Shown: positions 47,029 to 64,000, numbered from the stretch's first letter. The stretch: 64,000 nt of DNA from Methanomicrobia archaeon (GCA_011049045.1 DSCO01000022.1:1260-65259), one strand, 5' to 3'. Notes: generated from the sequence alone by a model not told the origin. Numbers and translations: made by a program.

Positions 47029-47103
47029 GCTCCGCTGGTGTAGTTCGGCCAAGCATAAGGGCCTCTCGAGCCCTTGACCGGGGTTCAAATCCCCGGCGGA
47101 GCA
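47029..47103 (+). tRNA. tRNA-Glu (anticodon CUC)
   Basis: Hand-folded cloverleaf: acceptor GCTCCGC/GCGGAGC, anticodon stem AGGGC/GCCCT with loop CT-CTC-GA, T arm CGGGG-TTCAAAT-CCCCG, discriminator A. No encoded CCA. Confidence 0.9.
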
Positions 47104-49131: not shown

Positions 49132-50403
49132 GTGAGTGGGAACGAAAATAGCTTAGCTGCTGCTTCCATGAGTGACGGTTTCGAACTCGCAAAAAAAGAA
49201 GTACAAAAACAAGACCCCTCTTCACCAGACCCTAGCTTGAATTTTAACTTGTTGTCAGTACAACGCCCGAGACCAGCTCTAATTGGTCCAGGGCCCTTTA
49301 GCTTCGATATCGCAGAAAAGAAGTTAAAAAACAAGACCCCCCTTTTTCCGCACAAGACCCCGAAGTTAAATTTTAACTTGTCCCTGCTACAGCAGCTCTC
49401 CCGCGGCCGACGCCCCGCTCAGATCGCACGTGAGCTCGGCATCTCGAAGCCCGCGCTGCAGTACCATCTGAACCAGCTCAAGGCCGCAGGGCTCATTTCA
49501 AAGCTCGGCTACGGGTGCTGGGAAGTTAACGATACAGCCCCGATTAACCCCCAGAAAAGAAGTACGAAAACAACCCAAGTCACTCTCGACAAGACCCACA
49601 AGTTAAAATTTTCGGAGATGCCTGATTCCGTCCGCGGGCACGCATTTGTGTTCGTACTGAAGGTGCCGCCGGGACTGCTGAACTGGAACAACCGGCGGCG
49701 TGAAGAATATCTCAAGAGGCACGGGATCGCATACCAGCCGCTCAGGATCGCAGGTGGCGGGCAACGCATCTGGGTGGGCGGCCGGAAGGTCTGGCTGACT
49801 ACCAGCTCGATCGTCATCTACGAGAAGAGTTCGTTCTTCGCGGCAACGGCGAAAGACGCGAAGCATCATGCGCTCTTCTCATTCATCGCAGTCGTGAAGA
49901 AACTCGAACGAACACTCCATGCGGACTTCACGTTCAAACTCGGGAAAGAATACCGGTTCAAGGTGTCAAGGCAGCACTATGCGCTCGTGCAGAACGCACT
50001 CGCAGAGCAGTACGACCACGAGGGCAAGCGACTGCAGGTGCGCGAGCCGGACGCTGGCAAGTTGTGGTTTGTGATTGATAACTCGTTCAACCTGCACGAG
50101 GCGGAGACGGTGCACCCGCGCACCGCGGACTCGGACAACGCGAAGGTGCAGAACTTCTTCAACTCACTGAAAGCGTGCCCGGTGACCACGGACGTGCTCG
50201 TCACCGCGATCGCGGGCGTCACGCAGAACCAGGTCCTCTTCGCGGAGAATATCACCAATCACATCCAGGCGGTTCGGGAGCTCGGGCAGGGTGTGCGGGA
50301 GATGAACCAGCTGCTCGCAAAGCTCGAGGTCACGCAACGCGACGCGCGCGCATCGCAGGCTGAGCGGATGCAGACGCGCGAGGTGAAGAAGAAGAAGTGG
50401 TAG
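49132..50403 (+). CDS. wHTH (ArsR-like) protein with triple N-terminal repeat and large unknown C-terminal domain
   Basis: RRPAQIARELGISKPALQYHLNQLKAAGLISK HTH. Three in-frame repeats of a K-rich ...LNFNL unit. Could be a plasmid/virus replication or regulatory protein. Confidence 0.6.
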   Translation: MSGNENSLAAASMSDGFELAKKEVQKQDPSSPDPSLNFNLLSVQRPRPALIGPGPFSFDIAEKKLKNKTPLFPHKTPKLNFNLSLLQQLSRGRRPAQIARELGISKPALQYHLNQLKAAGLISKLGYGCWEVNDTAPINPQKRSTKTTQVTLDKTHKLKFSEMPDSVRGHAFVFVLKVPPGLLNWNNRRREEYLKRHGIAYQPLRIAGGGQRIWVGGRKVWLTTSSIVIYEKSSFFAATAKDAKHHALFSFIAVVKKLERTLHADFTFKLGKEYRFKVSRQHYALVQNALAEQYDHEGKRLQVREPDAGKLWFVIDNSFNLHEAETVHPRTADSDNAKVQNFFNSLKACPVTTDVLVTAIAGVTQNQVLFAENITNHIQAVRELGQGVREMNQLLAKLEVTQRDARASQAERMQTREVKKKKW

Positions 50404-50612
50404 TGATCATCCCGCGTCGTAAAACCATTCGCATGATGCGAAACGCAAACCACGAAGCGTGCTGGCCCGAGATACAGAAGAAGGCACGGCGCGTCAGAAC
50501 GGTCGTTGACGACACAGGCGCGCGCTTCGTCGTTTACCGCATCTCAGGCAAAGAGCTCATGCAGGTGATGATCAAGCATCGCACCACAATACTCGCCCCG
50601 CGTGACGATTAA
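50397..50612 (+). CDS. hypothetical protein (weak)
   Basis: 71-aa ORF overlapping the upstream stop, with a non-ATG start. Confidence 0.25.
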   Translation: MVVIIPRRKTIRMMRNANHEACWPEIQKKARRVRTVVDDTGARFVVYRISGKELMQVMIKHRTTILAPRDD

Positions 50613-50691
50613 ACATTCCGCTACCACGCCCATTCCGAAGGTTGCGGTTTGCATGTGCAAGTTTTATATAGTATTCAAACTGTTCTCGTGA

Positions 50692-51288
50692 TTGGGGCAT
50701 GAATATGGTAAGAAAACCGATGAAGGTAAGCTTCTGGAAGACGCTCACATCTTCACACATCCTGTAAGGCACCGGATCGTGGAGCTGCTCGCGAAAAGGC
50801 CGATGCACATCGATGCGCTAAGCAGAGCGTTAGATGAAAAGAGGGGGCTCGTCGCCTATCATCTTGATACCTTGCAAGAGCACGGATTCGTGAAGAGCGA
50901 GTACGGTATCTTCCTTTTACAAGAGCTAGAGCAAATCGTAACGGCACTGAGGGTGTACAGGGTGACCGATAAGGTGGTGGAGGTGAAGGTGAAAAGAAAA
51001 AGGAGACAAAATTTAAAAGCCAGATCCATCCGGGACGCCATCACCAGCATTGGGTGCGGGACCTCTGGGTTCTCCAGGTTTGTCTTCATTTACCCAACCA
51101 CCATCCCAGCCAGGACCATCTTGCACGCCATCACCAGCATTGGGTGCGGGACCTCGTGTTTCACTAGCAATTACACCCGGAGAAAGGATGGTTGCCACAA
51201 CTATTGCAGTCAAAAATATAACCAGTATCTTTTTCATGTACTCATCACCGCCTATCTCGTTTTGCACCTACATGTGCAAAATGAATAG
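50692..51288 (+). CDS. ArsR-like wHTH regulator (paralog 1); true 3' end uncertain
   Basis: HPVRHRIVELLAKRPMHIDALSRALDEKRGLVAYHLDTLQEHGFV. Homologous at DNA and protein level to 55094..55399. The part beyond about 51000 is antisense to the peptide gene and probably not coding. Confidence 0.55.
   Translation: MGHEYGKKTDEGKLLEDAHIFTHPVRHRIVELLAKRPMHIDALSRALDEKRGLVAYHLDTLQEHGFVKSEYGIFLLQELEQIVTALRVYRVTDKVVEVKVKRKRRQNLKARSIRDAITSIGCGTSGFSRFVFIYPTTIPARTILHAITSIGCGTSCFTSNYTRRKDGCHNYCSQKYNQYLFHVLITAYLVLHLHVQNE
51013..51237 (-). CDS. small secreted protein with duplicated RGPAPNAGDGV.DG.G motif
   Basis: ATG at 51237 is preceded by ggcggtgatgag (SD-like). Signal peptide MKKILVIFLTAIVVATILSPGVIASE. 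Two copies of RGPAPNAGDGV(Q/P)DG(P/S)G arise from 31-nt perfect DNA repeats 90 bp apart. Confidence 0.6.
   Translation of the reverse strand: MKKILVIFLTAIVVATILSPGVIASETRGPAPNAGDGVQDGPGWDGGWVNEDKPGEPRGPAPNAGDGVPDGSGF
51261..51280. promoter_or_regulatory. inverted repeat TTTGCAC-N6-GTGCAAA upstream of the peptide gene (candidate ArsR-like operator)
   Basis: Read directly. The 9-mer CATGTGCAA recurs at 50652..50660, just upstream of the TATA-like box of the regulator gene. Confidence 0.35.
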
Positions 51289-51344
51289 GGGCAAACCACC
51301 TTAAAAGGTTTTAAGGTCTTATTCGGTTTAATCTTCCTCCTTTT

Positions 51345-51605
51345 TATGTACAACTCACAGAGCTGCTTGCGGAGCGGCCGATGCCTATCGATGCTCTGAG
51401 CCGTGCCTTAGATGAAAAGAGGATGCTCGTCGCGTACCATCTCTCTACGTTGCAAGAGCGCGGATTCGTGAAGAGCGAGTACGGTATCTTCCTTCTGCAA
51501 GAGCCAGAGCAGAGAGTCACGGCGCTGCGGGTGTACCGGGTGACCGATAAGGTGGTGGAGGTAAAAAGAAGCTATCCGCTTCCCCTGTTCCGCGCTCAGA
51601 TATGA
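51345..51605 (+). pseudogene. 5'-truncated ArsR-like wHTH gene (paralog 2)
   Basis: The frame reads YVQLTELLAERPMPIDALSRALDEKRMLVAYHLSTLQERGFVKSEYGIFLLQE..., colinear with paralog 1 from its helix 1 onward. There is no start codon at the homologous N-terminus. Confidence 0.5.
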
Positions 51606-51756
51606 AGAGCGATAAAAAAAGGTGTTACGAGGTGCTATTTGGTATAGGATATATCGAAGCGGTTTTAATGTTTATGGCGATCATATACATGAAATCCCGA
51701 TCAAAATAGGCAATTTGTAGGCTACTTATACCTATTTTTAGGTAAAGGAGATTAGC

Positions 51757-52134
51757 ATGATGAGCGAAGAAAAAGCTGAATACGTACTTGTATCGCTCTG
51801 TTTGTTGGGGGTACCATGCAGATTTCATGGCAAGCGGGAAGTTATGGGGCACCGGATCGGGCGCCCATCCCTTATCGCTAGGCTCGAAAAGCGGTATCGA
51901 CTGCTTCCACTTTGTCCGGAGCAGCTTGGGGGGCTTACTACACCGAGACCAGCGGCGGAAGTCATAAGCAGCGGACGGGTGCGAGCGAAGGACGGTGCGG
52001 ACGTCACCGAGCAGTACGAACGAGGCACCGAGATCGTACTTGAGATCGTGGAGCGGTACGGCATAAAGCGGGCGTGGCTACTCAAGGATAGCCCGGCATG
52101 TGGTCGCGGCTACGGGATCGTGCAGGAAAGATAA
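51757..52134 (+). CDS. DUF523-family protein (2-thiouracil desulfurase-like)
   Basis: SLCLLGVPCRFHG...CPEQLGGLTTPRPAAE matches the DUF523 Cys motif pattern. Confidence 0.65.
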   Translation: MMSEEKAEYVLVSLCLLGVPCRFHGKREVMGHRIGRPSLIARLEKRYRLLPLCPEQLGGLTTPRPAAEVISSGRVRAKDGADVTEQYERGTEIVLEIVERYGIKRAWLLKDSPACGRGYGIVQER

Positions 52135-52251
52135 GTACCTGCTAAAGAGGTACTTACCAGAAGTACACAACCTTTTATAAATGGAAATAGTATTCTCTTT
52201 TGTTGAGATGGGGGTGGAGTTAAAAAGGCAAGGAAGCTGACTGCATCATCG

Positions 52252-52560
52252 ATGAAGAAAGGGATGAAGGTGTGGGGTGTGGTGGCGGTTTTGATGGTTC
52301 TTGGGAGTTTGCTCGTTGGCGTTGTGAGCGCAGGCGAAGTCCCATTTTCGCCATATTATCCTGAACCAAGATCTAACAAACAGTGGTATCTTAATCAAAA
52401 TGATGGCTATCTTCCAGAAAGCACTACAACAAATTGTGGTCCTGCTGCAGCTGCGATGGTAATAAATTATTTTACAGGTAAGAAGCTGAGTCTCCAATAC
52501 CGGGATTTAAAGCACTACTCGCCATCGCAGGAGTATTCGGCGTGGCATTCTTCGTTTTGA
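52252..52560 (+). CDS. secreted papain-like (C39-like) cysteine peptidase, N-terminal fragment only
   Basis: Signal peptide plus the catalytic-Cys motif NCGPAAAAMVINYF. The ORF ends after about 100 aa without the His/Asp part. Confidence 0.4.
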   Translation: MKKGMKVWGVVAVLMVLGSLLVGVVSAGEVPFSPYYPEPRSNKQWYLNQNDGYLPESTTTNCGPAAAAMVINYFTGKKLSLQYRDLKHYSPSQEYSAWHSSF

Positions 52561-52570
52561 AAAGACGGAA

Positions 52571-53038
52571 ATGAATGAGAATGGGATAGGTGAAGAGGAA
52601 TACAGGGCTTTTATTGGAAAAAAAGCCGATTATTATACCAAAAAATGGTCAGCTATGGATGTTCGGCAAAGTAAGTGGTCTTGGAATTGGGGTGCTTTTA
52701 TCTTCAGAGAATTATGGTTTGCTTATAGGAAGATGTATATTTTTGCTTTGATCCTTTTTATTTTTCTTGGTTTAATAGTTGTTGTATCCTCAATATATTT
52801 ACAAATCGAAGATGAAGATATGGCTAACTTTGTGAAAGGTGTAAAAATATTATATTGGGCTATTGTTGCCGTCTATGCGAACTACTTGTATCACAAACAC
52901 GCAGACAAGAAGATTATTGATTTTAAAAGCACAAGTACCGGTGAATTGGCTACATCAGAATTAGCTAAACGCGGAGGGACCTCCTTAATTGCTCCCGTTA
53001 TTTTTATAGTTTTTGAAGGCATCCTATTTTTTATATAG
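52571..53038 (+). CDS. DUF2628-like membrane protein
   Basis: YYTKKWSAMD...WNWGAFIF.ELWFAYRKMY pattern and two TM segments, in an AT-rich block. Confidence 0.5.
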   Translation: MNENGIGEEEYRAFIGKKADYYTKKWSAMDVRQSKWSWNWGAFIFRELWFAYRKMYIFALILFIFLGLIVVVSSIYLQIEDEDMANFVKGVKILYWAIVAVYANYLYHKHADKKIIDFKSTSTGELATSELAKRGGTSLIAPVIFIVFEGILFFI

Positions 53039-53127
53039 AATGAAAGCCACAAAATTATTGATAAGAGTAATGCTTTGAGCGTTGAGGAAGTGCTAAAAAA
53101 GGCTCGTGCAAGACACAGCATGACCTG

Positions 53128-53619
53128 TTGGATCGCAGGATTCTCCGGCTCACTGGCGAGGCATTCGGTCAAGGAGCCTTACTGACGCAGGCAGACCTAG
53201 CGATCCTCTTGAACGAGAGCACGAAAACTGTTGCGCGGCATATCAAGGACCTGGAGACTCATGGCCACGTCGTGCCAACGAGAGGCAGCTGGAAGGACAT
53301 CGGTCCCGGGGTGAGTCACAAGAAACGCATACTGGAGCTTTACCTCAAAGGCGATGAATACACGGAGCTAGAGCGGAAGACCAAGCACAGTGGCGAAGCG
53401 ATAATGCGGTACGTGAAAGACTTCGCCCGGGTCCTGGTTCTTACCGAGGAAGAGTACTCAGCGGCAGAGCTCAGGATCGTAACCGGGCTATCGGACAGGA
53501 TAATTCGAGAGTACCAGGAGCTTATTGAGCAGTATTCAGGTCACGAGTACCGTGAGCGGTTAGAGCACCTGAGAGCGATCTTCAAAAAAAGGCGACGATC
53601 GGCGACCCCCGGGAGCTAG
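53128..53619 (+). CDS. DUF1670-like HTH protein (IS-associated family), probably N-terminally truncated
   Basis: LTQADLAILLNESTKTVARHIKDLE HTH. No ATG start; followed by an unrelated fragment ORF. Confidence 0.4.
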   Translation: MDRRILRLTGEAFGQGALLTQADLAILLNESTKTVARHIKDLETHGHVVPTRGSWKDIGPGVSHKKRILELYLKGDEYTELERKTKHSGEAIMRYVKDFARVLVLTEEEYSAAELRIVTGLSDRIIREYQELIEQYSGHEYRERLEHLRAIFKKRRRSATPGS

Positions 53620-53906
53620 GGGTCTCAGGCACCTCAGGGAGGTGGTCTCCATGAACGTTCCCGCGATGATCGAAGCGAAGGTGGCGAACTCCTTGAAAGG
53701 TGTGCTCATAGACCTCATCCAGCGCGAGTACCAGTTCATCGCCGGTGAGATAATATCCAGGAGATGTTCGCCAATGATGTCTTTTTCACTATTATGTACA
53801 GCTCACAGAGCTGCTTGCGGATCCGGTACATTTAAATATCGTCCGAACCTCATCTCTACGTGGTCTGATACAGACCGCCAACGCACCTGCCAAACCGCAA
53901 CCTACC

Positions 53907-54839
53907 ATGACCCTCAAGGAAAAAGCGATTGCGTGGTTCAGGCTCACTCGACTCCCCCTCTATTCCCTGGCCTTTATCGCCTATAGCATGGGTGCGGCCG
54001 CGGCGCACGCGACCTATCAGCAATTTGATGGGGCGGTCTATGCGCTCGGCGGTCTGGGGCTCATATTGATTATGCTGAATGCGGTGATCCTCAATGAGTA
54101 CGTGGATTACCCCTCCGATTGTCTCAATAAGAACCGAGGCGCGTTCAATGCGGGTTCAGGCGTGCTGGTAGAGGGTAAACTCGGATTTTCTGAGGTAAAG
54201 GCGGGTTTCGTCCTCATACTCTGTGCAATCCCCGTTTGTGCCTATGTGCTCATCCAGTTAGCAACGGAAGTCTCGGCAACTTCCGTTCTCGCATTGGTAT
54301 TTATTGGTATCTTCTTTGGCTGGGGATATTCCGCGCCACCGCTTAAATTCAGCTATCGCGGTCTCGGCGAACTTGTCAATAGTTTGATGCACGGCCCCGC
54401 GATTGTGCTTGCCGGGTTCGTACTTCAGACCGGAATGTGGACGAGCTCATTGCCCTGGCTCTTGGGCACCCCGCTCTTTTTCGCTACACTTGCTGCAGCG
54501 ATTTTGGCTGATCTTCCTGATTACCGATCCGATGCTGAGATCTCCCGAAAGACCGTTCCCGTCATCATTGGACCACGATTGACGGCACTACTCGCGTCCG
54601 GGTTCATTGCGCTTGCCGTTATTGCTGGTTTAGCGCTCTGGTATGTTGAACTCATTAAATATCCACTTGGACTGCTGATTCTTATTGTTGTCCCCAATGC
54701 AGTGATTCAAGAACGCGCAGTAATCACAATGATTAAAAAAGCTGATTATGATCGCCACATGACGGATATTATGAAATATGCGGATTTACAAATGCTTCTG
54801 TTTGGACTCTTACCATTACTAGCGTTCTTATTAAGATAA
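53907..54839 (+). CDS. UbiA-family prenyltransferase (MenA-like)
   Basis: 310 aa with about 8-9 TM segments, an N(D/E)Y.D...D motif (LNEYVDYPSD) and a second Asp-rich site (DLPDYRSD). Confidence 0.7.
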   Translation: MTLKEKAIAWFRLTRLPLYSLAFIAYSMGAAAAHATYQQFDGAVYALGGLGLILIMLNAVILNEYVDYPSDCLNKNRGAFNAGSGVLVEGKLGFSEVKAGFVLILCAIPVCAYVLIQLATEVSATSVLALVFIGIFFGWGYSAPPLKFSYRGLGELVNSLMHGPAIVLAGFVLQTGMWTSSLPWLLGTPLFFATLAAAILADLPDYRSDAEISRKTVPVIIGPRLTALLASGFIALAVIAGLALWYVELIKYPLGLLILIVVPNAVIQERAVITMIKKADYDRHMTDIMKYADLQMLLFGLLPLLAFLLR

Positions 54840-55093
54840 AATTCTGAACTAGGAGACGGAGTGGTCGACAGCGATCTTGCTGAGAATCTCGCGCTCAATG
54901 AAATCTTATATTCAGCTTTCTTCCCTCTCAAAGATGCAGATCAAGCCCAGCTGGCCGCACAGGGCGATCTCCTGCAACCGCCAGCCGCTCGCAGCCGGGT
55001 CCGAACTGTCTCGACTTGAGCATCCGGGTAGCTAAGGTTCATCTGTGTGCGTTCTATATACCGTAAAGTTACTAATGTGATTGGGGCAGAAAT

Positions 55094-55399
55094 ATGGAAA
55101 GAGAACCGTCAGAAGGTAAGCTTTCAGAAGACTTTTACGTCCTCATTCATCCCATACGTTACCGAATCGTCAAATTGCTTGCCGATAAGCCGCTGCACGT
55201 AAATGCAATTGCCCTCGCGATGGGTATTGAAAGGCGGCACATTACCTACCATTTACGGATCCTGGAGGACTCTGGATTCATAACGAGCAAGTACGGAGTC
55301 TCGGAAGAGAAAAAATTGAGGGGAAAGGCACTAAGGGTGTGTACGCTTACTGACAAGGTCGCGGAAGTGAAAGCGGCGTTGAAAAAGGATCTGGAGTAG
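55094..55399 (+). CDS. ArsR-like wHTH regulator (paralog 3)
   Basis: HPIRYRIVKLLADKPLHVNAIALAMGIERRHITYHLRILEDSGFI. The promoter/5' region is homologous to that of 50692. Confidence 0.7.
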   Translation: MEREPSEGKLSEDFYVLIHPIRYRIVKLLADKPLHVNAIALAMGIERRHITYHLRILEDSGFITSKYGVSEEKKLRGKALRVCTLTDKVAEVKAALKKDLE

Positions 55400-55476
55400 G
55401 ATCTAATTGCCTTCGTCTGGGGGCGGAGCCAGCTAGCTTCCGAGTTTAAGTTCATCTCGATCCTATTCGTACTTAT

Positions 55477-56268
55477 ATGGTGCCGTACGTATTGCGCGCA
55501 CCGCAGGGGCTGTTTACCGTGCCTTCAGTGAGCTCACATTCCGAGGAAGCGAAGCCGCCCGCGCATCGCGGACGCAGCGGGGCAGCACAGTCAAGAGCAC
55601 GCATATCCACCGGTCTGCCGCGGCTCGATCCGATCTTGGGCGGCTTCAAAGCGGGCACCGTGAGCCTGATTGAGGGCAACCATCCCCTCATCTCCGAGGC
55701 GCTCTCGCTGCTCGCCATCAATGCGGTCACGCACTTGGAAAAATCGGTCGTGTACGTGGACGGCGGTAATTCCATTGATCCTTACCTCATTGCGACGCTC
55801 GCCAAACGGTCAGGGGTAAAACCAGCTCAGGTGCTACAGCAGATCCTGGTTGCACGGGCGTTCACCGCGTATCAACTGGACACCATCATCTCTGATCGGC
55901 TCGAAGCGGTGCTCGATCAGGCAGAGCTAGGCCTGCTGATCGTTGCTCGCATTACAGATCTCTTCCTGGATCGGGCGGTGGCAGAGAAGGAGGCACTCGC
56001 CATGTTGAGCCGATGCGTTGCGCGCATCGAAACGAGCACTCACGATCGAGCGCTGATCACCGTGGTCACGAAGCGGCGACGAACGCCTTCATCGCGCGCG
56101 CTGGCGTTCGATGAGATCCTCGCGAAGCTCCCGGAAGACCGGATCAGCGTAGAACGCAGGAGGAAGGGCGTCAGGCTGCACCAGCACACGCGCGATATCA
56201 TCATGGACTACGTGCCGCTTTCGATCTATCAAACGACCCTGGATGAGTTCATAGGCGGTGGTACGTGA
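55477..56268 (+). CDS. RadB/RecA-fold protein lacking Walker A and Walker B residues
   Basis: ISTGLPRLDPILGGFKAGTVSLIEGNHPLISEAL...VVYVDGGNSIDP...LLIVARITDLF is colinear with RadB. The P-loop GxxGxGKT is replaced by GNHPLISE, and the Walker B Asp by Ala. Confidence 0.65.
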   Translation: MVPYVLRAPQGLFTVPSVSSHSEEAKPPAHRGRSGAAQSRARISTGLPRLDPILGGFKAGTVSLIEGNHPLISEALSLLAINAVTHLEKSVVYVDGGNSIDPYLIATLAKRSGVKPAQVLQQILVARAFTAYQLDTIISDRLEAVLDQAELGLLIVARITDLFLDRAVAEKEALAMLSRCVARIETSTHDRALITVVTKRRRTPSSRALAFDEILAKLPEDRISVERRRKGVRLHQHTRDIIMDYVPLSIYQTTLDEFIGGGT

Positions 56269-56548
56269 GATGGGTAGGACGGTCCGCACCTATCGGACGG
56301 TGCTGGAGGAGTTGATCGCCGACTGGGAACGGTTTCGGAAAGCGCTGCGGAAAGAGGATCGGGAAGCGTTCGATCGCCTGATGGCGAAAGCGCGCACACA
56401 TGCCAGTGCGGCCAGCTACGACGCACGCGTTGACCCCAGCGAATCGCTCTTCATGTCTATTCTGGTGGAGCTGGAACGCGAGCTCGAGGCGCTCAGAGCG
56501 AAGGTCGCGGAGCTTGAGCAGCAGCAGAAGGAGGAGCAAGAGCAGTGA
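56258..56548 (+). CDS. small helical/coiled-coil protein
   Basis: 96-aa ORF overlapping both neighbours, with a C-terminal ELERELEALRAKVAELEQQQKEEQEQ. Confidence 0.5.
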   Translation: MVREMGRTVRTYRTVLEELIADWERFRKALRKEDREAFDRLMAKARTHASAASYDARVDPSESLFMSILVELERELEALRAKVAELEQQQKEEQEQ

Positions 56549-58773
56549 ACGGCTGGGTACTCGATGTCGGTGCGGATTATGAGCAGAACTCGATCATGCT
56601 CTGGCTGAAGCAGGAGAGCGGTTTGGTCGAAGCGGTGGAATGCCCCTTCTTACCCTCGCTTTATGTGCACGCGGCGCCGGCGAACTTGCAGGTGCTGGAA
56701 GAGACCTTCGAGGACGAGCCGTTCGTCAATGCATGGGGGTACGAGGAGAAACGTCTGTGGCCGGGCGAGCCTGCGCAGGAGGTATTGCGAATCACGCTCG
56801 CGGAGTACCGGATGCTTATGAAGCTCGCGCGCGAGATCGACGAGATGGGTGATTACTCGCTCTACGAGCTCTTCAACGTGGATCTCAGCATCCCCACGGC
56901 GTTTATGCTGGAGAAGGGCATCGTCCCGATGGCGCAGATCGGACTCAAGAAACAATCAGAGTTCGAGCTGCTCGAAGATCTCACCGCGATTGATTATCCG
57001 GTACCAGAGCTCCGAAGCGTCAGCCTGGAGGGCAAGGTCAACGCTACAAGCACGCAGCACATGGCTGCATGTCCAATATCTGAGCTCTTGCTGGACGGCC
57101 AGCCGGTAGCGGGTCGCACTGAGCGGGATTTGCTCAGCGGACTCATTGAAGCCATCACTGCTAGGGATCCGGACATCATTTACACCCCTAACGGCGACGC
57201 GTTCCTCATCCCGTACCTCATGGAGCGTGCACGGGTCAACGAACTCGATGACTTCTGCCTCGGCCGCGGACGCGACCTTCGGCCGGTGGGGCAGCCGAAG
57301 TCCTATTTCAGCTACGGGCGCGTGATCTACCGGCCACCGAAATGCCGCTTCAACGGCCGGATACACATCGATCAGAGCAGCTCGTTCCTCTTCCGCGAGG
57401 GTGGCCTTCCCGGCCTGATCGAGCTCGCACGATTATCCCGGATTCCGCTGCAATCGGTATCCCGTGTGACACCCGGCACGGTGATCACCGCGATGCAGAT
57501 CGCAGAAGCGTCGCAGGAGAACGTCCTCATCCGCTGGAAGAAGAACGTGCCCGAGGCGTTTAAAGACGCGCAAACGCTCTTCCTCGCTGATCGCGGCGGC
57601 ATGATTTACGATCCCCGCGTGGGCGTCCATGAAGACGTGGTGGAGATCGACTTCACCTCGCTCTATCCAAGCATCATGGTCAAGCATAACATCTCGCCTG
57701 AGACCGTGCTCTGCTCGTGCTGCCCGGATAGCAGCCACCGCGTCCCGATCATTGATTACCCGATCTGCGAGCAGCGGGTGGGGCTGATCCCGCGCGTCCT
57801 GGAGCCGCTGATCGCGCGCAGGAGTGAATACAAGCGACGCGTGAAAGCGAAAAAATGGCAGGATAACTGGGCGATCTATGAGGCACGCAAGAACGTGCTG
57901 AAATGGATCCTCGTTACCTGTTTCGGCTATACCGGTTACAGAAATGCACGGTTCGGACGGATCGAATGCCACGAAGCGATCAATGCGTACGGCAGAGAGC
58001 TTTTGCTCCAGACTGCGCAGATCGCCGAAGAGCGCGGCTACGAGGTGCTCCACGGGATCATCGATTCGCTCTGGTTGAAGGGCGCCGCGCAGAATGCACG
58101 CGACCACGAGCTATTGCGGCAAGCGATCGAGCACGAAACGGGCATGCCGCTGGAGCTCGAAGGCGTGTACCGCTGGGTCGTCTTTCTGGCCCGGAAGTCC
58201 CAGAGCACGGGCGCGCTGAACCGCTATTACGGGCTCTTCGCGGACGGCACGATGAAGATCCGCGGCCTGGAGCTGAGGCGTAGCGATACGCCGCAACTGA
58301 TCAGGAACGCGCAACTGGATCTGCTGAAGGTGATGGCCCGAGCTGATAACGTCGCGGCGCTGTACGAGCTCATGCCTGACGTGATCGGGGTGCTCCGGAG
58401 GTACGCTGATCGCATCGTGAACGGCGAGTGCGCGTTGGAGGAGCTGGTCTTTACGCCCGTGGTCTCACGCGAGCTCGAGTTCTATTCGCACCTGACCAAC
58501 AGCGCCGCCTGCCTGCTCCAGTTGAAGCGGCGTGGACGTGCCGTGCACCCGGGCGAGCGGATACAGTACATCGTGACTGATGCCGGCTCAGCGCGCATCG
58601 CGAAGAAGGTAAAGGCCTGGGCGCTGGTTGACGGCACGGAACAGTATGATAAGAAGCGCTACGTCCGGCATTTGCTCAGGGCAGCCGAAAGCATCCTCTC
58701 ACCGTTTGGCTATACGGAGCGCAAACTGGCAGAGATCATTAAACCTACAAGACAATTGACGCTTCCGATCTAA
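56545..58773 (+). CDS. polB: family B DNA polymerase, divergent (exonuclease motifs degenerate, motif C variant)
   Basis: Motif A DFTSLYPSI; motif B K..L....FGYTGY; motif C HGIIDS (canonical DTDS); RGLELRRSD. ExoI reads SLE instead of DIE, ExoII reads NGDAFLIPYL (FD to FL), and the ExoIII segment is missing. Confidence 0.9.
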   Translation: MNGWVLDVGADYEQNSIMLWLKQESGLVEAVECPFLPSLYVHAAPANLQVLEETFEDEPFVNAWGYEEKRLWPGEPAQEVLRITLAEYRMLMKLAREIDEMGDYSLYELFNVDLSIPTAFMLEKGIVPMAQIGLKKQSEFELLEDLTAIDYPVPELRSVSLEGKVNATSTQHMAACPISELLLDGQPVAGRTERDLLSGLIEAITARDPDIIYTPNGDAFLIPYLMERARVNELDDFCLGRGRDLRPVGQPKSYFSYGRVIYRPPKCRFNGRIHIDQSSSFLFREGGLPGLIELARLSRIPLQSVSRVTPGTVITAMQIAEASQENVLIRWKKNVPEAFKDAQTLFLADRGGMIYDPRVGVHEDVVEIDFTSLYPSIMVKHNISPETVLCSCCPDSSHRVPIIDYPICEQRVGLIPRVLEPLIARRSEYKRRVKAKKWQDNWAIYEARKNVLKWILVTCFGYTGYRNARFGRIECHEAINAYGRELLLQTAQIAEERGYEVLHGIIDSLWLKGAAQNARDHELLRQAIEHETGMPLELEGVYRWVVFLARKSQSTGALNRYYGLFADGTMKIRGLELRRSDTPQLIRNAQLDLLKVMARADNVAALYELMPDVIGVLRRYADRIVNGECALEELVFTPVVSRELEFYSHLTNSAACLLQLKRRGRAVHPGERIQYIVTDAGSARIAKKVKAWALVDGTEQYDKKRYVRHLLRAAESILSPFGYTERKLAEIIKPTRQLTLPI

Positions 58774-58853
58774 CTCGCAAGCTCTGAAGAAACGACAAGC
58801 TCAGTAGTCACATCTGAAGAACTGAGTTCAGGATCTTTAACCTTGAGTTTCCT

Positions 58854-59117
58854 TTACTTTGCGACGAGCCCCTCAAAGGTCTTCGCTACGTCGCCCAGTA
58901 GCTTCTTCTCCTCTGTACTCAGGTTCGGTGATACCTGCAAACCCTTCAACACGCCGATTGCCTCAATGGTCTTAGTGATCTGCGCTGCAGGTGCTACCTT
59001 CTCAGCTGCTTTCTTTGCTCGCTTCGTTGCTCGCTTGTGATTCATCCTCACATGCCGTGCTAATTCCAGGGGTGTTCCAAACTTCTCACCACAATATTTG
59101 CATTTATATTCTGCCAT
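58854..59117 (-). CDS. C2H2 zinc-finger protein
   Basis: YKCKYCGEKFGTPLELARHVRMNH. A TATA-like atttatata lies upstream. Confidence 0.65.
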   Translation of the reverse strand: MAEYKCKYCGEKFGTPLELARHVRMNHKRATKRAKKAAEKVAPAAQITKTIEAIGVLKGLQVSPNLSTEEKKLLGDVAKTFEGLVAK

Positions 59118-59713: not shown

Positions 59714-60031
59714 ATGAGAAGAATGAAGTTTGTAGTAAGGAAAGTGAAGGAGTGTTTGGTGAGGGAAGGTGTGGTTTTTAGTGTGAGAAAGTGGGGTGGT
59801 ATTGGAAAGTGTAGTGAAGTGATAGTTGAAGATGTGGGAGTTTGTGAGAAGAGATGTGTAAGGTGGATTGAGAGTAAGGAGGAGTTAAAGGAGTTTGTGG
59901 GGTTGAGTGGGTTGAGAAGTGTGGATGAATGGTGGAGGTGGTGTGAGAAGTTTGGATGTAATAAAGGTGGATGGTTGTGGGAAGTGAAGGTTGTGAAGAG
60001 AATGAAAGGGGGTTTGGAGTTATGGATGTGA
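59714..60031 (+). CDS. 105-aa protein encoded entirely by cytosine-free codons, function unknown
   Basis: ATG preceded by a polypurine/GGAGG-rich leader. There are no in-frame stops although all three stop codons are C-free and are frequent in the other two frames. All Arg codons are AGA/AGG. No Ala, Pro, Thr, His or Gln. Confidence 0.7.
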   Translation: MRRMKFVVRKVKECLVREGVVFSVRKWGGIGKCSEVIVEDVGVCEKRCVRWIESKEELKEFVGLSGLRSVDEWWRWCEKFGCNKGGWLWEVKVVKRMKGGLELWM

Positions 60032-60056
60032 AAAAGGTCCTGCGACGGTGGAGAAT

Positions 60057-60075
60057 CCGACGGTGGGACCGTCGG
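60057..60075 (+). other. GC-rich hairpin 26 nt downstream of the cytosine-free ORF
   Basis: ccgacgg-tggga-ccgtcgg (7-bp stem). Preceded by a direct repeat of cgacggtgg at 60043. Confidence 0.4.
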
Positions 60076-60202
60076 AGGTTAATGATTCTGGAAGAGCTCC
60101 TGGGGGGAGTGAGGACCTGTGGAGGTGTGTAATATGATTTATGATCCCTGGCATAGGCCTGCAACCGGGATCGAATCCTGGAGGGATCACAGGAGGAATG
60201 AA

Positions 60203-60382
60203 ATGAAAACCCGAGAACATTTCCCCACCCTGGACCCCTCAGTTCGTGAATACGTGCTGAGGGTAAATAAAGCCGACGAGATGCGTGGCGAACTCATCGG
60301 ACAGGCCTTGATCTTCGAGGCCGAGTTAAACGCCTGGATCGACAGAATGGAAAAACAGGAGGATGCCGAAGATGGCTGCTGA
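60203..60382 (+). CDS. hypothetical protein (59 aa)
   Basis: ATG at 60203 preceded by aggagg; lies within ORF 60119..60382. Confidence 0.45.
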   Translation: MKTREHFPTLDPSVREYVLRVNKADEMRGELIGQALIFEAELNAWIDRMEKQEDAEDGC

Positions 60383-60845
60383 AGATCTTGCAACGAAAGC
60401 GCAGATAAAGCGCCTGTACGCTGTCATTTACGCGACCCACAACGATCCGAAGGACTGGAAGAAAGAGAAGAACGTATCCTCCTTCGAGCGTTTGAGCCGC
60501 GCCCAGGTATCCGAATATATCGAGGAGCTCGAAGAGCTTGAGAATGAGCTCAAAGGGCGGAACCATCGGGAACTGAGCGAAGGCACGCAGCGCCAGGTAA
60601 CAACTACGCTCATCGATGCGGATGCTGAGCCCGCGGCTGAGCCGAAGACGGACCTCGTGGTGGCGGACCGCGAGCGCGAAATAGCGGACTTAGCGAGCAT
60701 AATGCGAGAATGCGCGCGCGCAGCACGCACAATCGTCGAGGACGAGCTCGCGAACGGTGGCGGGCTCACAGAGACCACCAAGGCGACCCTGATCGAGCGC
60801 TTCTCGGTGACGTTGTTCATCGAGGCGCGAAAGCGAGGTTTCTAA
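60363..60845 (+). CDS. hypothetical virus-like protein
   Basis: 160-aa ORF overlapping the upstream stop. The KAQIKRLYAV...LSRAQVSEYIEELE pattern is reminiscent of phage regulatory proteins. Confidence 0.5.
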   Translation: MPKMAAEDLATKAQIKRLYAVIYATHNDPKDWKKEKNVSSFERLSRAQVSEYIEELEELENELKGRNHRELSEGTQRQVTTTLIDADAEPAAEPKTDLVVADREREIADLASIMRECARAARTIVEDELANGGGLTETTKATLIERFSVTLFIEARKRGF

Positions 60846-60847
60846 AG

Positions 60848-61021
60848 ATGACCATCTGCGAGCGTGCAGAGAAGATCGAGAAGGAGTTAAACACGTTAAA
60901 TGCGCAAGGGATAACCTCAAAACTCATACAAGATCTTGGAGCCGCTCCTTTTGCAGTTATGGATTCTGAAGCCTTTAAGAGGTATCTGAGAGGAGAATTG
61001 GAAAGGGTGCTAATCAAGTAA
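60848..61021 (+). CDS. hypothetical protein (57 aa)
   Basis: ATG 2 nt after the upstream stop (MTICERAEKIEKEL...). Confidence 0.35.
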   Translation: MTICERAEKIEKELNTLNAQGITSKLIQDLGAAPFAVMDSEAFKRYLRGELERVLIK

Positions 61022-61489
61022 GTGAAGAAAGTACAGTGCAGGCTTGCGCCGCAAGCTGGAACCGGCTCCGCGATCGACCGCAAGCGCAGAAAGGCAGCGC
61101 GCGCGAAATTTGCCGGAAATTTGGTGGCATTGGCGACGCCGCCCATCTCGCCGCACTCCCCGCGCCCGTGCGTTCGCAATCCTTCTGGCAACTTCGAGCT
61201 CGTGCTGCGTGAACGGCAACAGGCGGCTAAGGTCACCGTGCCCCACAAACTCGTCTGGCATAGCACGCCGAAGGTCGCCCGCATACAGGCGATCGAGCCC
61301 TATTATTCCAACGGGCAGCTGCTCTTCCTCGATACCTGGAACCGTGATTATCCCGAGCTCGTGGAGCAGCTGATCCCCTACCCGCTTGCAGCGCATGACG
61401 ACGGGCCTGATGCGCTCGCCGGCGCTATCGCGCTGATTCTTGCGAATGAGAAGGCGCAAAGGCAGGTGCTTATTCCGCGTGCGCGATAG
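61022..61489 (+). pseudogene. C-terminal fragment of a terminase large subunit (nuclease domain end)
   Basis: VARIQAIEPYYSNGQLLFLD...LIPYPLAAHDDGPDALAGAIALI matches the conserved terminase C-terminal block (..HDD..DAL..A). The ATPase and most of the nuclease domain are absent. Confidence 0.55.
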
Positions 61490-62219
61490 CCCCTCTCGCT
61501 GTCGCGCTAACACTACCCGTTATTCCATCGCACGCTTTGAGTCTGTTCCGCGCGCGGCACTGCTGTCTGTCTCTGCCATGCCCACCGGCGCGCATTTCCG
61601 CCACCCGCCGCTTCATTTCCTCCGCTTTATCGCTTCGTCCTTCCACTTCACTGTTTCTTCCCCCGTAGTTCGCTTTCTCACAATCTTTATTCACAATTTG
61701 TAAGAGCCACCGCACACCCCAGATTGATTCCTGATCGCCCGTTTGACTTTGCGATTTAATAGCGGGTTTATTTGTTTACTGTATTTTTTCAATCGCCAAA
61801 ACATAGGTATTTAAGTACAAAATGCTTTCTAATAAATAAGAGAGGAAAAAAAGATGGAAATAAAAGCGATTGATAAGATGGTGGAAAAATCTTTAATAAC
61901 CTGTATAGATACGGGACTGTCAACTTGTTGGGGGTTGAAAATAGAACCATCAAAGTTAAACCGTGTATTGTGGAAATACGGTCTGATTTTCAAACTCAAT
62001 GACGGACTTGAAGACTTTTCAAAAGCAGAGACCTAGCGTGTAATATCTAATCCCTAGCCTAGTTCTAGGTATAGAAGCGCGATACGGGACACCGTTGTGG
62101 TGTCCCAAATTATGAGCGCTTACTCTTTGAGTCTATCCGAAGACATAGTGGCAGTATTAACAGCATTCATGTGAATAATTAATAAGAGTATTATACTTTT
62201 TTAAAGAGTCATCAGGGAA

Positions 62220-62408
62220 ATGAAACTGAGGAAGCTAATTACGGAACTTGAAACAGGTGGAGATTACGAACAGGCAAGGCAGGTAAGAGAAACATACCGA
62301 GGGAGCAAAAGAATGGTGGCACATTTGGGGATCTGGGAACTAATAACAGAGCTTGAAACAGGTGGAGATTACGAACAGGCAATTAAGGTACGAGAAGCAC
62401 GCAGATGA
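62220..62408 (+). CDS. hypothetical small protein with internal tandem duplication
   Basis: LITELETGGDYEQA(R/I)(Q/K)VRE occurs twice, in an AT-rich block. Confidence 0.3.
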   Translation: MKLRKLITELETGGDYEQARQVRETYRGSKRMVAHLGIWELITELETGGDYEQAIKVREARR

Positions 62409-62724
62409 ACAAATAATGGTAACAAATTCGTAAACATTTGACGAATGGGTATATAGTTATTACTTATTAAATCACCTATTCATTTTATGTTAACTACATT
62501 TTTCTTACATTTTATTTTCATACCACCGTCATCCACTACTTCATATATATCTTATACTCATTAACGAAGGGCTGATGTAGTGCTGCACAGTACCGAGTGT
62601 TTAAACAGCTTACTGCGCACGTGACACATTTGATTATGTGTGCATAATACGGGGGCGCAATCACCCCAGCTAGCGCATCCGGCCCGTCAATGAATGCCCC
62701 CCAAAAAATCGCTCAGAGAGATCT

Positions 62725-63057
62725 TCAATCGTTTTTTCGTTCGTATTCCATATCCCGCCCAGCCAGAACATGGGGTATTATTCCCGCTACCTGGTTTACT
62801 GACAGAATCGGGTATGTCTTAAACTTTATGTATGGTAAGTACTTCCAATTCTCCAGAGTGATCTCTTGTTCAGTCCCTTCACAGATGGCGTAACCGCCGA
62901 GTTCGCCACCAGCAAACATTCCCCAATCCAGAGTTATCCCCCGCTTTAAGTCCTCTTTGACCATGTTCACCATCATCGTCTGACTACGGATTTGCTCTTC
63001 AGGACTCTCAGACATTCTGGTCGTATCTATTTCCCAAATTGTTAGAAACTTTGCCAT
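62725..63057 (-). CDS. hypothetical protein
   Basis: About 110-aa ORF (MAKFLTIWEIDTTRM...) with an upstream aaaaagggagg SD-like sequence. Confidence 0.5.
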   Translation of the reverse strand: MAKFLTIWEIDTTRMSESPEEQIRSQTMMVNMVKEDLKRGITLDWGMFAGGELGGYAICEGTEQEITLENWKYLPYIKFKTYPILSVNQVAGIIPHVLAGRDMEYERKND

Positions 63058-64000
63058 CTTTACCACCTCCCTTTTTGGATTTTATCCACTACGTTGTAGA
63101 TAGGTAGGAGTCAAATAAAAACGTTATCCAAGTTTGGCGTCACCAAAACTTTTACGGATATAAAAGATGCATGTAGCGGCATGCTCTCAAATTTCTATGT
63201 TCCCTCACCACCTGTAAAAACGGTATAGTCAGTGTGCTGTACTGTTCGGAGCGATGTGCAGGTGGCGTAAATCCCGCCCACTCTTGCGCCGCATCATGTG
63301 GCATTCGCGGTGCCTAGCGATGCTCCGCTCTCGCCTCCGTGTGGCAGAGCTCGCGCACAACATCGTCTACGCGGTCGCACACGACGCGCTCGCCGGCGAG
63401 TTCGCGGTCTGCAACGGCCCGCCGGGGTGCACGCTCCGAAGCTGCGCTCAAGGCTCGCGCTGCTCGTGAAAAACGGCATGGCGAACGCATAACACCGTGC
63501 GGCGTTCGCTGCTTGCGGTAAGGCATCCGCGCGTGCAGCTCAGCCACCACTGCGCGCTTCACGTGTGAAGAAAAAAAGAGAAGAAACCTAACGTTTGTAT
63601 CCTGAACACAGCCCTCAACAATACCGCGGGTCGCTTGCCCGCGAAGGCGCTAAGGCGGTTCGTCTTTGCACGCATGCACGCATAGTAACACAGCCCGCCC
63701 AATTGTACACGGCGGCGCCGCGCCGTCAATATATCCGTCGGCACGTACTAACATTTGCCGAAACTTTTATAGAGAATGTTAACGAAGTATTGAGCACAAG
63801 CAGTTTAATGATGGGAAAATTTAGATAACGGGGAGGTAACCCAATGCCCAAGGAAACAACCCGGAAGGTTTCCCGCTCCAAACGGGAAAAGATGAATTAC
63901 ATCAGGTCCTTTCTTACCTTGGTTGGTACCTTTATAACTTGATGAGAAGGGCATGTCAAGGGGGTTGCGCATCGCCTGCCGCTCACGCAGGGCGTTCGCC

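Follow-up and report, generated by a model that had tools for sequence, protein, structure and literature searches.

Do an exonuclease-inactivated family B DNA polymerase, a RadA-like protein that has lost its ATPase motifs and a small helical protein, encoded side by side, make up a new system or one that is already known? The question is raised by three adjacent genes at positions 55477-58773 of a 64,000-nucleotide stretch of DNA (the window) from a Methanomicrobia archaeon (GCA_011049045.1 DSCO01000022.1:1260-65259). A first-pass annotation, made from the sequence, had seen in them a dedicated three-protein module around a diverged, PolB2-type polymerase, a view that the conserved linkage of the genes described below supports; it had not recognized a characterized system. 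The system is, however, already published, and the claim of novelty falls: the trio was described in 2014 (Makarova, Krupovic, and Koonin; PMC4104785) and modeled in 2025 (Timinskas, Timinskas, and Venclovas; PMC11791011). We put at roughly 85% the probability that the three genes are the copy, from anaerobic methanotrophic archaea of group 1 (ANME-1; Methanophagales-type), of the archaeal PolB2 'mutasome' operon in its group 1a form, and encode a translesion extender complex.

Three linked genes and the published PolB2 complex

The 2014 analysis found PolB2 in a predicted operon with a gene for an inactivated member of the RadA family and a gene for an alpha-helical protein of ~90 aa (arCOG07300), in archaea and in some bacteria (PMC4104785). 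The later study named the partners iRadA (arCOG07763/04294/08101) and PPB2, classified the gene orders and modeled a PolB2:iRadA:PPB2(x3) heteropentamer (PMC11791011). According to that work, the hallmark of PPB2 is an N-terminal 'MGRT' arm with Arg3 and Arg9; a loop of PolB2 binds iRadA in the manner of the Rad51/RadA oligomerization motif and is followed by a conserved D(K/R); in the models PolB2 pairs specifically with iRadA, not with active RadA; and a C-terminal PCNA-binding motif, frequent but not universal, is commoner on iRadA than on PolB2. Moreover, the first Asp of the DxD signature is replaced in most PolB2s (401-IID-403 in Sulfolobus/Saccharolobus islandicus), and supplementary file 1 of the same study lists group 1a operons with the motif C HGIVDS or HGIIDS. 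The accessions of the window's MAG were not found in the study's supplementary tables, which were searched in truncated form. The sequence hallmarks that we tested are all present in the window, namely the MGRT arm with Arg9, the FxxA...DR loop, the dead motifs, a PCNA-box-like end of iRadA and the gene linkage. The three genes are:

55477..56268, + strand: iRadA, ATPase-dead RadA/Rad51 paralogue, maximal open reading frame (ORF) of 263 aa (Pfam, AlphaFold2 (AF2), Foldseek)
56270..56548, + strand: PPB2 (arCOG07300; Pfam PF26485, DUF8156), 92 aa, N-terminal MGRT arm and Glu/Gln-rich tail (MGRTV motif, PF26485)
56545..58773, + strand: PolB2, exonuclease-inactivated family B DNA polymerase, GTG start, 742 aa (Pfam, NCBIfam, hhalign, AF2)

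The maximal ORFs, all on the + strand, run from 55477 to 56268 (263 aa), 56258 to 56548 (96 aa) and 56545 to 58773 (742 aa), as annotated at first pass, and the order iRadA-PPB2-PolB2, adjacent and on one strand, is the group 1a arrangement. One genome per species was scanned for relatives, with at least 583 found, and the best 80 loci were examined; these span ANME-1, Methanoperedens, Methanomassiliicoccales, other Thermoplasmatota, Theionarchaea, and Hadarchaeota. Linkage was counted in those 67 of the 80 loci in which the sequence upstream of the polymerase extends for 1150 bp or more: in 53 the polymerase is directly preceded by both partner genes, and in several of the remaining loci they are found a few kb off. 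Furthermore, five additional contigs (polymerase identity 45-88%) all carry a Rad51-like gene, a DUF8156 gene and PolB in this order. The linkage of the RadA-like and small genes to the polymerase, which the first-pass annotation had proposed to survey in homologs, is conserved rather than peculiar to this locus. The nearest relatives (polymerase identity 62-88%) come from metagenome-assembled genomes (MAGs) of ANME-1, 'Ca. Methanospirareceae' and Methanophagales, and the NCBI entries identical to the window proteins (HDS44901-44903; ENN68_02195/02200/02205), on a ~70-kb MAG contig assigned to Methanomicrobia archaeon, are each named 'hypothetical protein'.

Both gene junctions had been read as overlaps, and one of them stands: the GTGA overlap at 56545-56548 is kept in relatives. 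For the other, the longest ORF of the small gene begins at GTG 56258, but the MGRTV motif is invariant in the family and the NCBI gene call gives 92 aa (HDS44902.1), with which other callers agree, so that the start is ATG 56270; as this codon lies one base past the iRadA stop at 56266-56268, the reported overlap is not real. The small protein had been described as a helical protein of 96 aa with a Glu/Gln-rich tail, of which the helical character and the tail hold and the length does not. Its N-terminus reads MGRTVRTYR, with M1-G2-R3-T4-V5 and R9 invariant or nearly so among 26 homologs; the Methanomassiliicoccus PPB2, from an operon modeled with the stoichiometry 1:1:3, begins MGRTVPTYR (PMC11791011). 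PF26485 is assigned in precomputed form to the identical database protein (P0121) and to all 120 listed homologs. Our local searches of Pfam and NCBIfam returned no match for the small protein, in the case of Pfam because the local copy apparently lacks the PF26485 model. PPB2 also matches two PHROG families to which no function is assigned, phrog_30126 (E = 4e-11) and phrog_26583 (E = 1e-5), and a tblastn search with it finds 89 haloarchaeal megaplasmids, all of them non-mobilizable secondary replicons.

The polymerase, its inactivated RadA partner and the upstream region

The polymerase was compared by phmmer, MAFFT, and hhalign with the KOD PolB, the reference sequence of which agrees with PDB 1wns at each of its 774 residues. 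MAFFT misplaced GRIHID and the ExoIII region, and the phmmer and hhalign alignments put both right. Relative to KOD, the following segments are of interest:

57190..57219, + strand: ExoII remnant NGDAFLIPYL, residues 216-225, with Leu221 in place of the catalytic Asp
57535..57594, + strand: PolB2 loop WKKNVPEAFKDAQTLFLADR, residues 331-350, with FxxA (F339-A342) and D349-R350, the predicted iRadA/PPB2-binding element
57649..57672, + strand: motif A DFTSLYPS, D369 kept
57901..57939, + strand: motif B KWILVTCFGYTGY, K453 kept, Asn of KxxxNSxYG replaced by Val
58051..58068, + strand: motif C HGIIDS, with His503 in place of Tyr, Ile505 in place of the first Asp, and D507 kept
58210..58227, + strand: GALNRY in place of KKRY, preceded by an 8-residue insertion

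Several comparisons point to a probable place of the protein among PolB2s. It matches Pfam DNA_pol_B (PF00136, E = 1e-35), aligns with KOD at an hhalign probability of 100 over 670 columns (26% identity over the hhalign columns) and yields an AF2 model with a predicted local distance difference test score (pLDDT) of 83.2. The best NCBIfam models are NF004418 (476.5 bits) and NF004416 (471 bits), as against at most 190 bits for PolB1- and PolB3-type models. Over its full length it is 34% identical to the PolB2 of Halalkalicoccus jeotgali, as against the 26% over hhalign columns for the KOD PolB3, and it scores 113 bits against the Dpo1 of S. solfataricus (Sso).

The first-pass reading of the polymerase motifs was confirmed against KOD: motif A and the motif B Lys are kept, motif C reads HGIIDS, and LNRY stands for KKRY. 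At 72 related genome loci that were scored, motif C reads IVD in 58, IID in 13, VVD in one and DxD in none. The PolB2 family alignment shows no substitution of D369, K453, or D507, which argues for retained catalysis. As to proofreading, the annotation of the enzyme as exonuclease-dead holds in substance and needs correction in detail. The ExoII Asp is lost, and ~62 residues of KOD (261-322), including ExoIII, have no counterpart in PolB2, compared with the ~55 first given. ExoI had been placed at SLE; hhalign sets D146-L-T148 against D141-I-E143 of KOD, whereas S159-L-E161 corresponds by strand position in the model, and the earlier placement is probably wrong. Neither candidate is conserved among relatives and, because neither keeps the DxE pair, ExoI is by sequence dead under either alignment. 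The concern that intact residues might have been misaligned by eye is answered by the profile alignment, in which the exonuclease residues are lost and the first Asp of motif C is replaced.

The loop at residues 331-350 has no counterpart in KOD, and W331, K332, E337, F339, K340, A342, L345, D349, and R350 are invariant within it in 17 PolB2s (WKKNxPExFKxAxxLxxxDRGG); in the monomer model it has a pLDDT of 54-63. We take F339-x-x-A342 to be the FxxA form of the Rad51 oligomerization motif. The whole loop matches the published 'beta-alpha motif preceding the conserved D(K/R)' and is predicted to bind iRadA as described there (PMC11791011). At the C-terminus, the PCNA box of PolB2 is truncated to QLTLPI; a close relative has kept QVTLPVYL, and the box is full in more distant ones.

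Several Thermoplasmata homologs of the polymerase (P0050, P0061, P0062, P0085, P0087, P0107, P0119) are 1190-1274 aa long and contain intein and LAGLIDADG domains (PF14890, PF14528). Inteins in a polymerase that was long thought inactive are noteworthy in themselves.

The motifs of iRadA were located by a phmmer alignment with the RadA of Pyrococcus furiosus (Pfu; 1pzn, 4a6p):

55675..55698, + strand: degenerate Walker A, GNHPLISE, residues 67-74
55933..55950, + strand: Walker B equivalent LLIVAR, residues 153-158, aligned to LLIVDS of Pfu RadA, Asp replaced by Ala157
56230..56253, + strand: PCNA-box-like motif QTTLDEFI, residues 252-259 (homolog conservation, model, published table)

The earlier observation that GNHPLISE stands in place of GxxGxGKT, and that LLIVARI lacks the Walker B Asp, is borne out by this alignment, in which GEFGSGKT of Pfu RadA corresponds to GNHPL and a 4-residue gap, the P-loop being deleted. 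The loss of the residues for ATP binding and hydrolysis holds across the iRadA family alignment. iRadA matches Pfam Rad51 (E = 7e-8) over residues 42-163 only, and all NCBIfam models for RadA, RadB, Rad51, and Dmc1 score far below their cut-offs (RadA, 35 bits). The AF2 model, built with 25 homologs, has a pLDDT of 84.7 and a predicted template modeling (TM) score of 0.80, with a core (residues 41-250) above a pLDDT of 90, disordered residues 1-40 and no N-terminal helix-hairpin-helix (HhH) domain. In a Foldseek search with this model, the cores of RAD51, RadA, and DMC1 rank on top (E ~ 1e-13, TM 0.6-0.75, ~210-235 aligned columns).

The true start of iRadA is probably GTG 55519, which would give a protein of 249 aa. 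This is suggested by the lack of conservation of ATG 55477, which reads ATA or AGC in two relatives of 86-87% nucleotide identity, by a 1-nt indel between ATG 55477 and GTG 55519 in one of these (L001), by the beginning of most iRadA homologs with 'MPS...' at the position of 55519, and by the disorder of residues 1-40 in the model. At the other end, the sequence closes with QTTLDEFI-GGGT, the motif lying 4 residues from the terminus with a short helix, in the AF2 model, on the tail that follows the last strand; Q252 and L255 are invariant among the 25 homologs. We regard QTTLDEFI as the predicted, PCNA-box-like, PCNA-binding motif of iRadA. In supplementary file 1 of the published study, 'QLRLDHFG' at the equivalent C-terminal position is scored as an iRadA PCNA motif, and the Methanomassiliicoccus iRadA ends with QTTLEEFLRR (PMC11791011).

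Upstream of the genes lies one further conserved segment:

55427..55518, + strand: upstream conserved region of the operon, at which nucleotide homology with the two close relatives (L001 and L008, 86-87% identity) begins

It contains TATA-like boxes (TTTAAG, 55445-55450; TTATAT, 55473-55478) and, at 55493-55500, between these and the probable iRadA start at 55519, an 8-bp palindrome, TGCGCGCA, which in the two relatives extends to 10 bp, GTGCGCGCAC. In the alignment with L001 and L008 the TATA-like boxes and the palindrome are conserved and ATG 55477 is not. The region would be a promoter or operator, and the palindrome could be the operator for the operon. A scan for sigma-70 promoters and terminators was uninformative, such models not being applicable to an archaeon.

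Genomic context and rival explanations

The first 47 kb of the window are ordinary chromosome, with genes for the A and B subunits of the A-type ATPase, MetRS, a homocysteine-synthesis enzyme, aldehyde:ferredoxin oxidoreductase, and ABC transporters. A tRNA-Glu(CTC) gene at 47029-47103 marks the border between these housekeeping genes and DNA that is rich in ORFans and of patchy GC content: the operon has a GC content of 0.59, as in the chromosome, and its flanks 0.42-0.54. The alignment with the L001 and L008 loci (86-87% nucleotide identity) is confined to 55427/55436-58775, and the flanks of these loci share nothing with the 64-kb window but a displaced block, 50380-50989, which matches positions 4241-4858 of L001. 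As this block directly adjoins the operon in L001 and lies 4.4 kb from it in the window, a lower-GC insertion of ~4.4 kb (50990-55426) can be recognized; it encodes a PF04463 protein (2-thiouracil desulfurase family), a DUF2628 protein, a DUF1670 protein, a UbiA prenyltransferase, and an ArsR-type helix-turn-helix (HTH) protein. Downstream, from 59714 to 64000 and on to ~64803 of the same contig (L006 14238-19327), small ORFans accompany a C-terminal fragment of a terminase large subunit (61022-61489; phrog_38, E = 1e-15, the match covering just the final ~90 of the 760 positions of the profile) and, just past the end of the window, a 165-aa Phage_integrase fragment; together these point to a decayed provirus or a remnant of an integrated element.

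Among the neighbors, four ArsR/HTH_20-type paralogues lie within 6 kb upstream (49132-50403, ~50779-51288, ~51381-51605, 55094-55399). The one nearest to the operon (55094-55399) was considered as a partner and rejected: it recurs in one close relative only, and there resembles another of the window paralogues. On the other side, 80 bp past the PolB2 stop, a convergent gene (58854-59117, - strand) encodes an 87-aa C2H2 zinc-finger protein (PF00096, E = 8e-6), which is found in the identical contigs and not beside the operon in relatives.

The location of the operon in accessory DNA, as first annotated, is therefore only partly upheld, since the variable, low-GC, ORFan-rich and non-syntenic flanks and the decayed provirus downstream agree with it, but the chromosome-like GC content of the operon, the lack of a bounded island and the housekeeping context of the relatives do not. 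The operon lies in a variable part of the genome and might be moved as a cassette, but it is not itself the signature of a mobile element. That it is nevertheless the cargo of such an element, serving the replication of the element or defense-related DNA synthesis rather than the host chromosome, we consider quite improbable. This explanation would account for the restriction of the sequence common to close relatives to 55427-58775 with all flanks different, for the composition of these flanks, for the terminase and integrase fragments, and for the occurrence of PPB2 relatives in two PHROG families and on 89 haloarchaeal megaplasmids. Yet no relatives were found with the PPB2 and PolB2 profiles in 2.9 million viral contigs (IMG/VR), or by tblastn in 50,697 GenBank phage records; no direct repeat of at least 13 bp derived from the tRNA-Glu and bounding an island was found out to 66.3 kb; the relatives keep the operon amid housekeeping genes; the plasmid matches are to non-mobilizable replicons; and the provirus remnant does not enclose the operon, a convergent gene lying between the two.

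Two other explanations concern the proteins themselves. In one, which we judge improbable, the polymerase is catalytically dead and the complex serves as a regulator or scaffold without enzymatic function, acting for example in the sensing of stalled forks or in the control of replication initiation. This reading reportedly originated with Rogozin in 2008. It was also adopted in the 2014 study, which, because of a link with Orc genes, proposed a role in regulation or alternative initiation (PMC4104785), and it agrees with the replacement of the first motif C Asp, of the ExoI-III residues and of the KKRY lysines, as well as with the loss of the ATPase motifs of iRadA. However, the Dpo2 polymerases of S. 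islandicus and S. solfataricus polymerize robustly in vitro although they bear IID (PMC8764526), the residues D369, K453, and D507 are kept throughout the family, some homologs contain inteins, and no orc gene is found near the window locus. The other explanation takes the first gene for a RadB-type recombination mediator, as the first-pass annotation did, with the polymerase performing D-loop repair synthesis in homologous recombination. The RadA/RadB-like core without an N-terminal HhH domain and the RAD51 paralogues among the PDB matches are in its favor; against it, iRadA reaches 24.2 bits with the RadB equivalog, for which the cut-off is 172.4, and 21.3 bits with the other RadB model, for which it is 278 (RadB: TIGR02237/NF006861); its score against RadA is slightly better. 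Moreover, the Walker A motif is deleted and the Walker B Asp lost, whereas bona fide RadB keeps the P-loop. We therefore rejected the identification as RadB in favor of the iRadA family and, as iRadA, rather than active RadA, is also the specific partner of PolB2 in the published models (PMC11791011), hold this explanation to be very improbable.

Some observations weigh against the identification as a PolB2 mutasome as well. With neither of the two PolB2-type NCBIfam models does the polymerase attain the curated cut-off (476.5 versus 692 and 471 versus 516), and its probable placement in the PolB2 clade is supported indirectly, by pairwise identities and scores. Homologs whose PolB2 has a full PCNA box of its own still keep the QxxLxx(F/Y) motif in iRadA, which might thus serve a structural role instead. 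The predicted complex is based on AlphaFold models of orthologs, not of the window proteins. Finally, no orc1/cdc6, SRAP or DUF72 genes, which are reported as enriched but not required neighbors, occur within 10 kb on either side, so that damage-inducible regulation is unsupported at this locus; DUF72 is found near the operon in a Thermoplasmata relative, and Cdc6 in H. jeotgali.

A predicted extender complex and its known counterparts

From the AlphaFold models of orthologs, together with the biochemistry and genetics of Sulfolobus Dpo2, we infer that the three proteins form a complex that extends termini opposite lesions. By analogy, PolB2 would be an active two-metal polymerase that uses D369 of motif A and D507 of motif C; with the proofreading site destroyed, a mispaired 3' end would be extended instead of excised. 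The FxxA...DR loop (residues 331-350) would dock on the ATPase-dead RadA paralogue as Rad51 subunits dock together, iRadA thereby acting as a non-ATPase adaptor, and a PPB2 trimer, in this family a predicted coiled coil of three-helix proteins, would place one MGRT arm between PolB2 and iRadA, beside the DNA. The QTTLDEFI motif of iRadA would tether the complex to PCNA, the own box of PolB2 having decayed to QLTLPI. Such a complex may extend termini opposite lesions and mismatches and so confer damage tolerance at the price of mutagenesis. Indeed, the robust activity of the Dpo2 enzymes of S. islandicus and S. solfataricus is accompanied by undetectable 3'-5' exonuclease activity, and Dpo2 inserts poorly opposite lesions and extends mismatched and lesion-opposed termini efficiently (PMC8764526); in that study's citation of earlier work (PMC7390963), dpo2 is given as the sole polymerase gene essential for damage-induced mutagenesis. 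Among the roles that the first-pass annotation had offered, damage tolerance by translesion synthesis is thus the one that the literature favors, whereas replication of an element and defense are disfavored by the lack of viral relatives in the databases searched and by the housekeeping contexts.

One close counterpart, the S. islandicus Dpo2 system, shares with the window the three protein families, IID in motif C, the dead exonuclease, the D(K/R) after the iRadA-binding loop and an MGRT-type arm. The window polymerase is larger (742 aa), with a fuller, though inactive, exonuclease-domain scaffold; PPB2 has Arg9 where that of S. islandicus has Thr9; and the operon has no Orc1-2-type gene nearby. 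On plasmid 1 of H. jeotgali B3 the same order is found as Cdc6 - iRadA - PPB2 - 'type B DNA-directed DNA polymerase'. This polymerase is 34% identical to that of the window and colinear with it from end to end. It reaches 1241 bits with NF004418, the haloarchaeal PolB2 model that is also the best match of the window polymerase, and the two share LHGI(I/V)DSLW, GAL(N/T)(R/K)Y and FK..(x)..ADRGG. A Cdc6/Orc1 gene adjoins the haloarchaeal copies, often along with SRAP, and many of these copies are located on megaplasmids, whereas the upstream neighbor in the window is the non-conserved ArsR-type HTH gene.

More distant likenesses are functional and do not imply membership. The Escherichia coli Pol V mutasome (UmuD'2C-RecA-ATP) likewise unites a proofreading-free translesion polymerase, a RecA-family subunit, a small oligomer, and clamp binding, an analogy drawn in PMC11791011, but its polymerase belongs to the Y family, its RecA is active, ATP-bound and derived from a filament, and there is no homology between the accessory proteins. 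Eukaryotic DNA polymerase zeta (Rev3-Rev7), compared with Dpo2 in PMC8764526, is also a proofreading-free B-family extender of mismatches and lesions; it has other accessory subunits and no RadA paralogue as partner.

A more specific proposal, which is tentative and rather unlikely, is that the ANME-1 PolB2 operon is a relocating, self-contained cassette of promoter and three genes (55427-58775), brought here next to a decayed provirus and perhaps placed under a lineage-specific operator, TGCGCGCA, rather than in an Orc1-2 damage regulon, with PCNA tethering wholly on iRadA. As regards this last point, the clade fits the published pattern of a PCNA box on iRadA or PolB2 and rarely on both, with the caveat that the iRadA motif is kept beside full PolB2 boxes in some relatives. 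The practical value of the identification is that HDS44901-44903 can be given the names iRadA, PPB2, and PolB2 and the starts of PPB2 and iRadA corrected. For the biology of the family it adds little that is new: the operon would be one more instance, from uncultured ANME-1 archaea, of a widespread and published archaeal module for damage tolerance.

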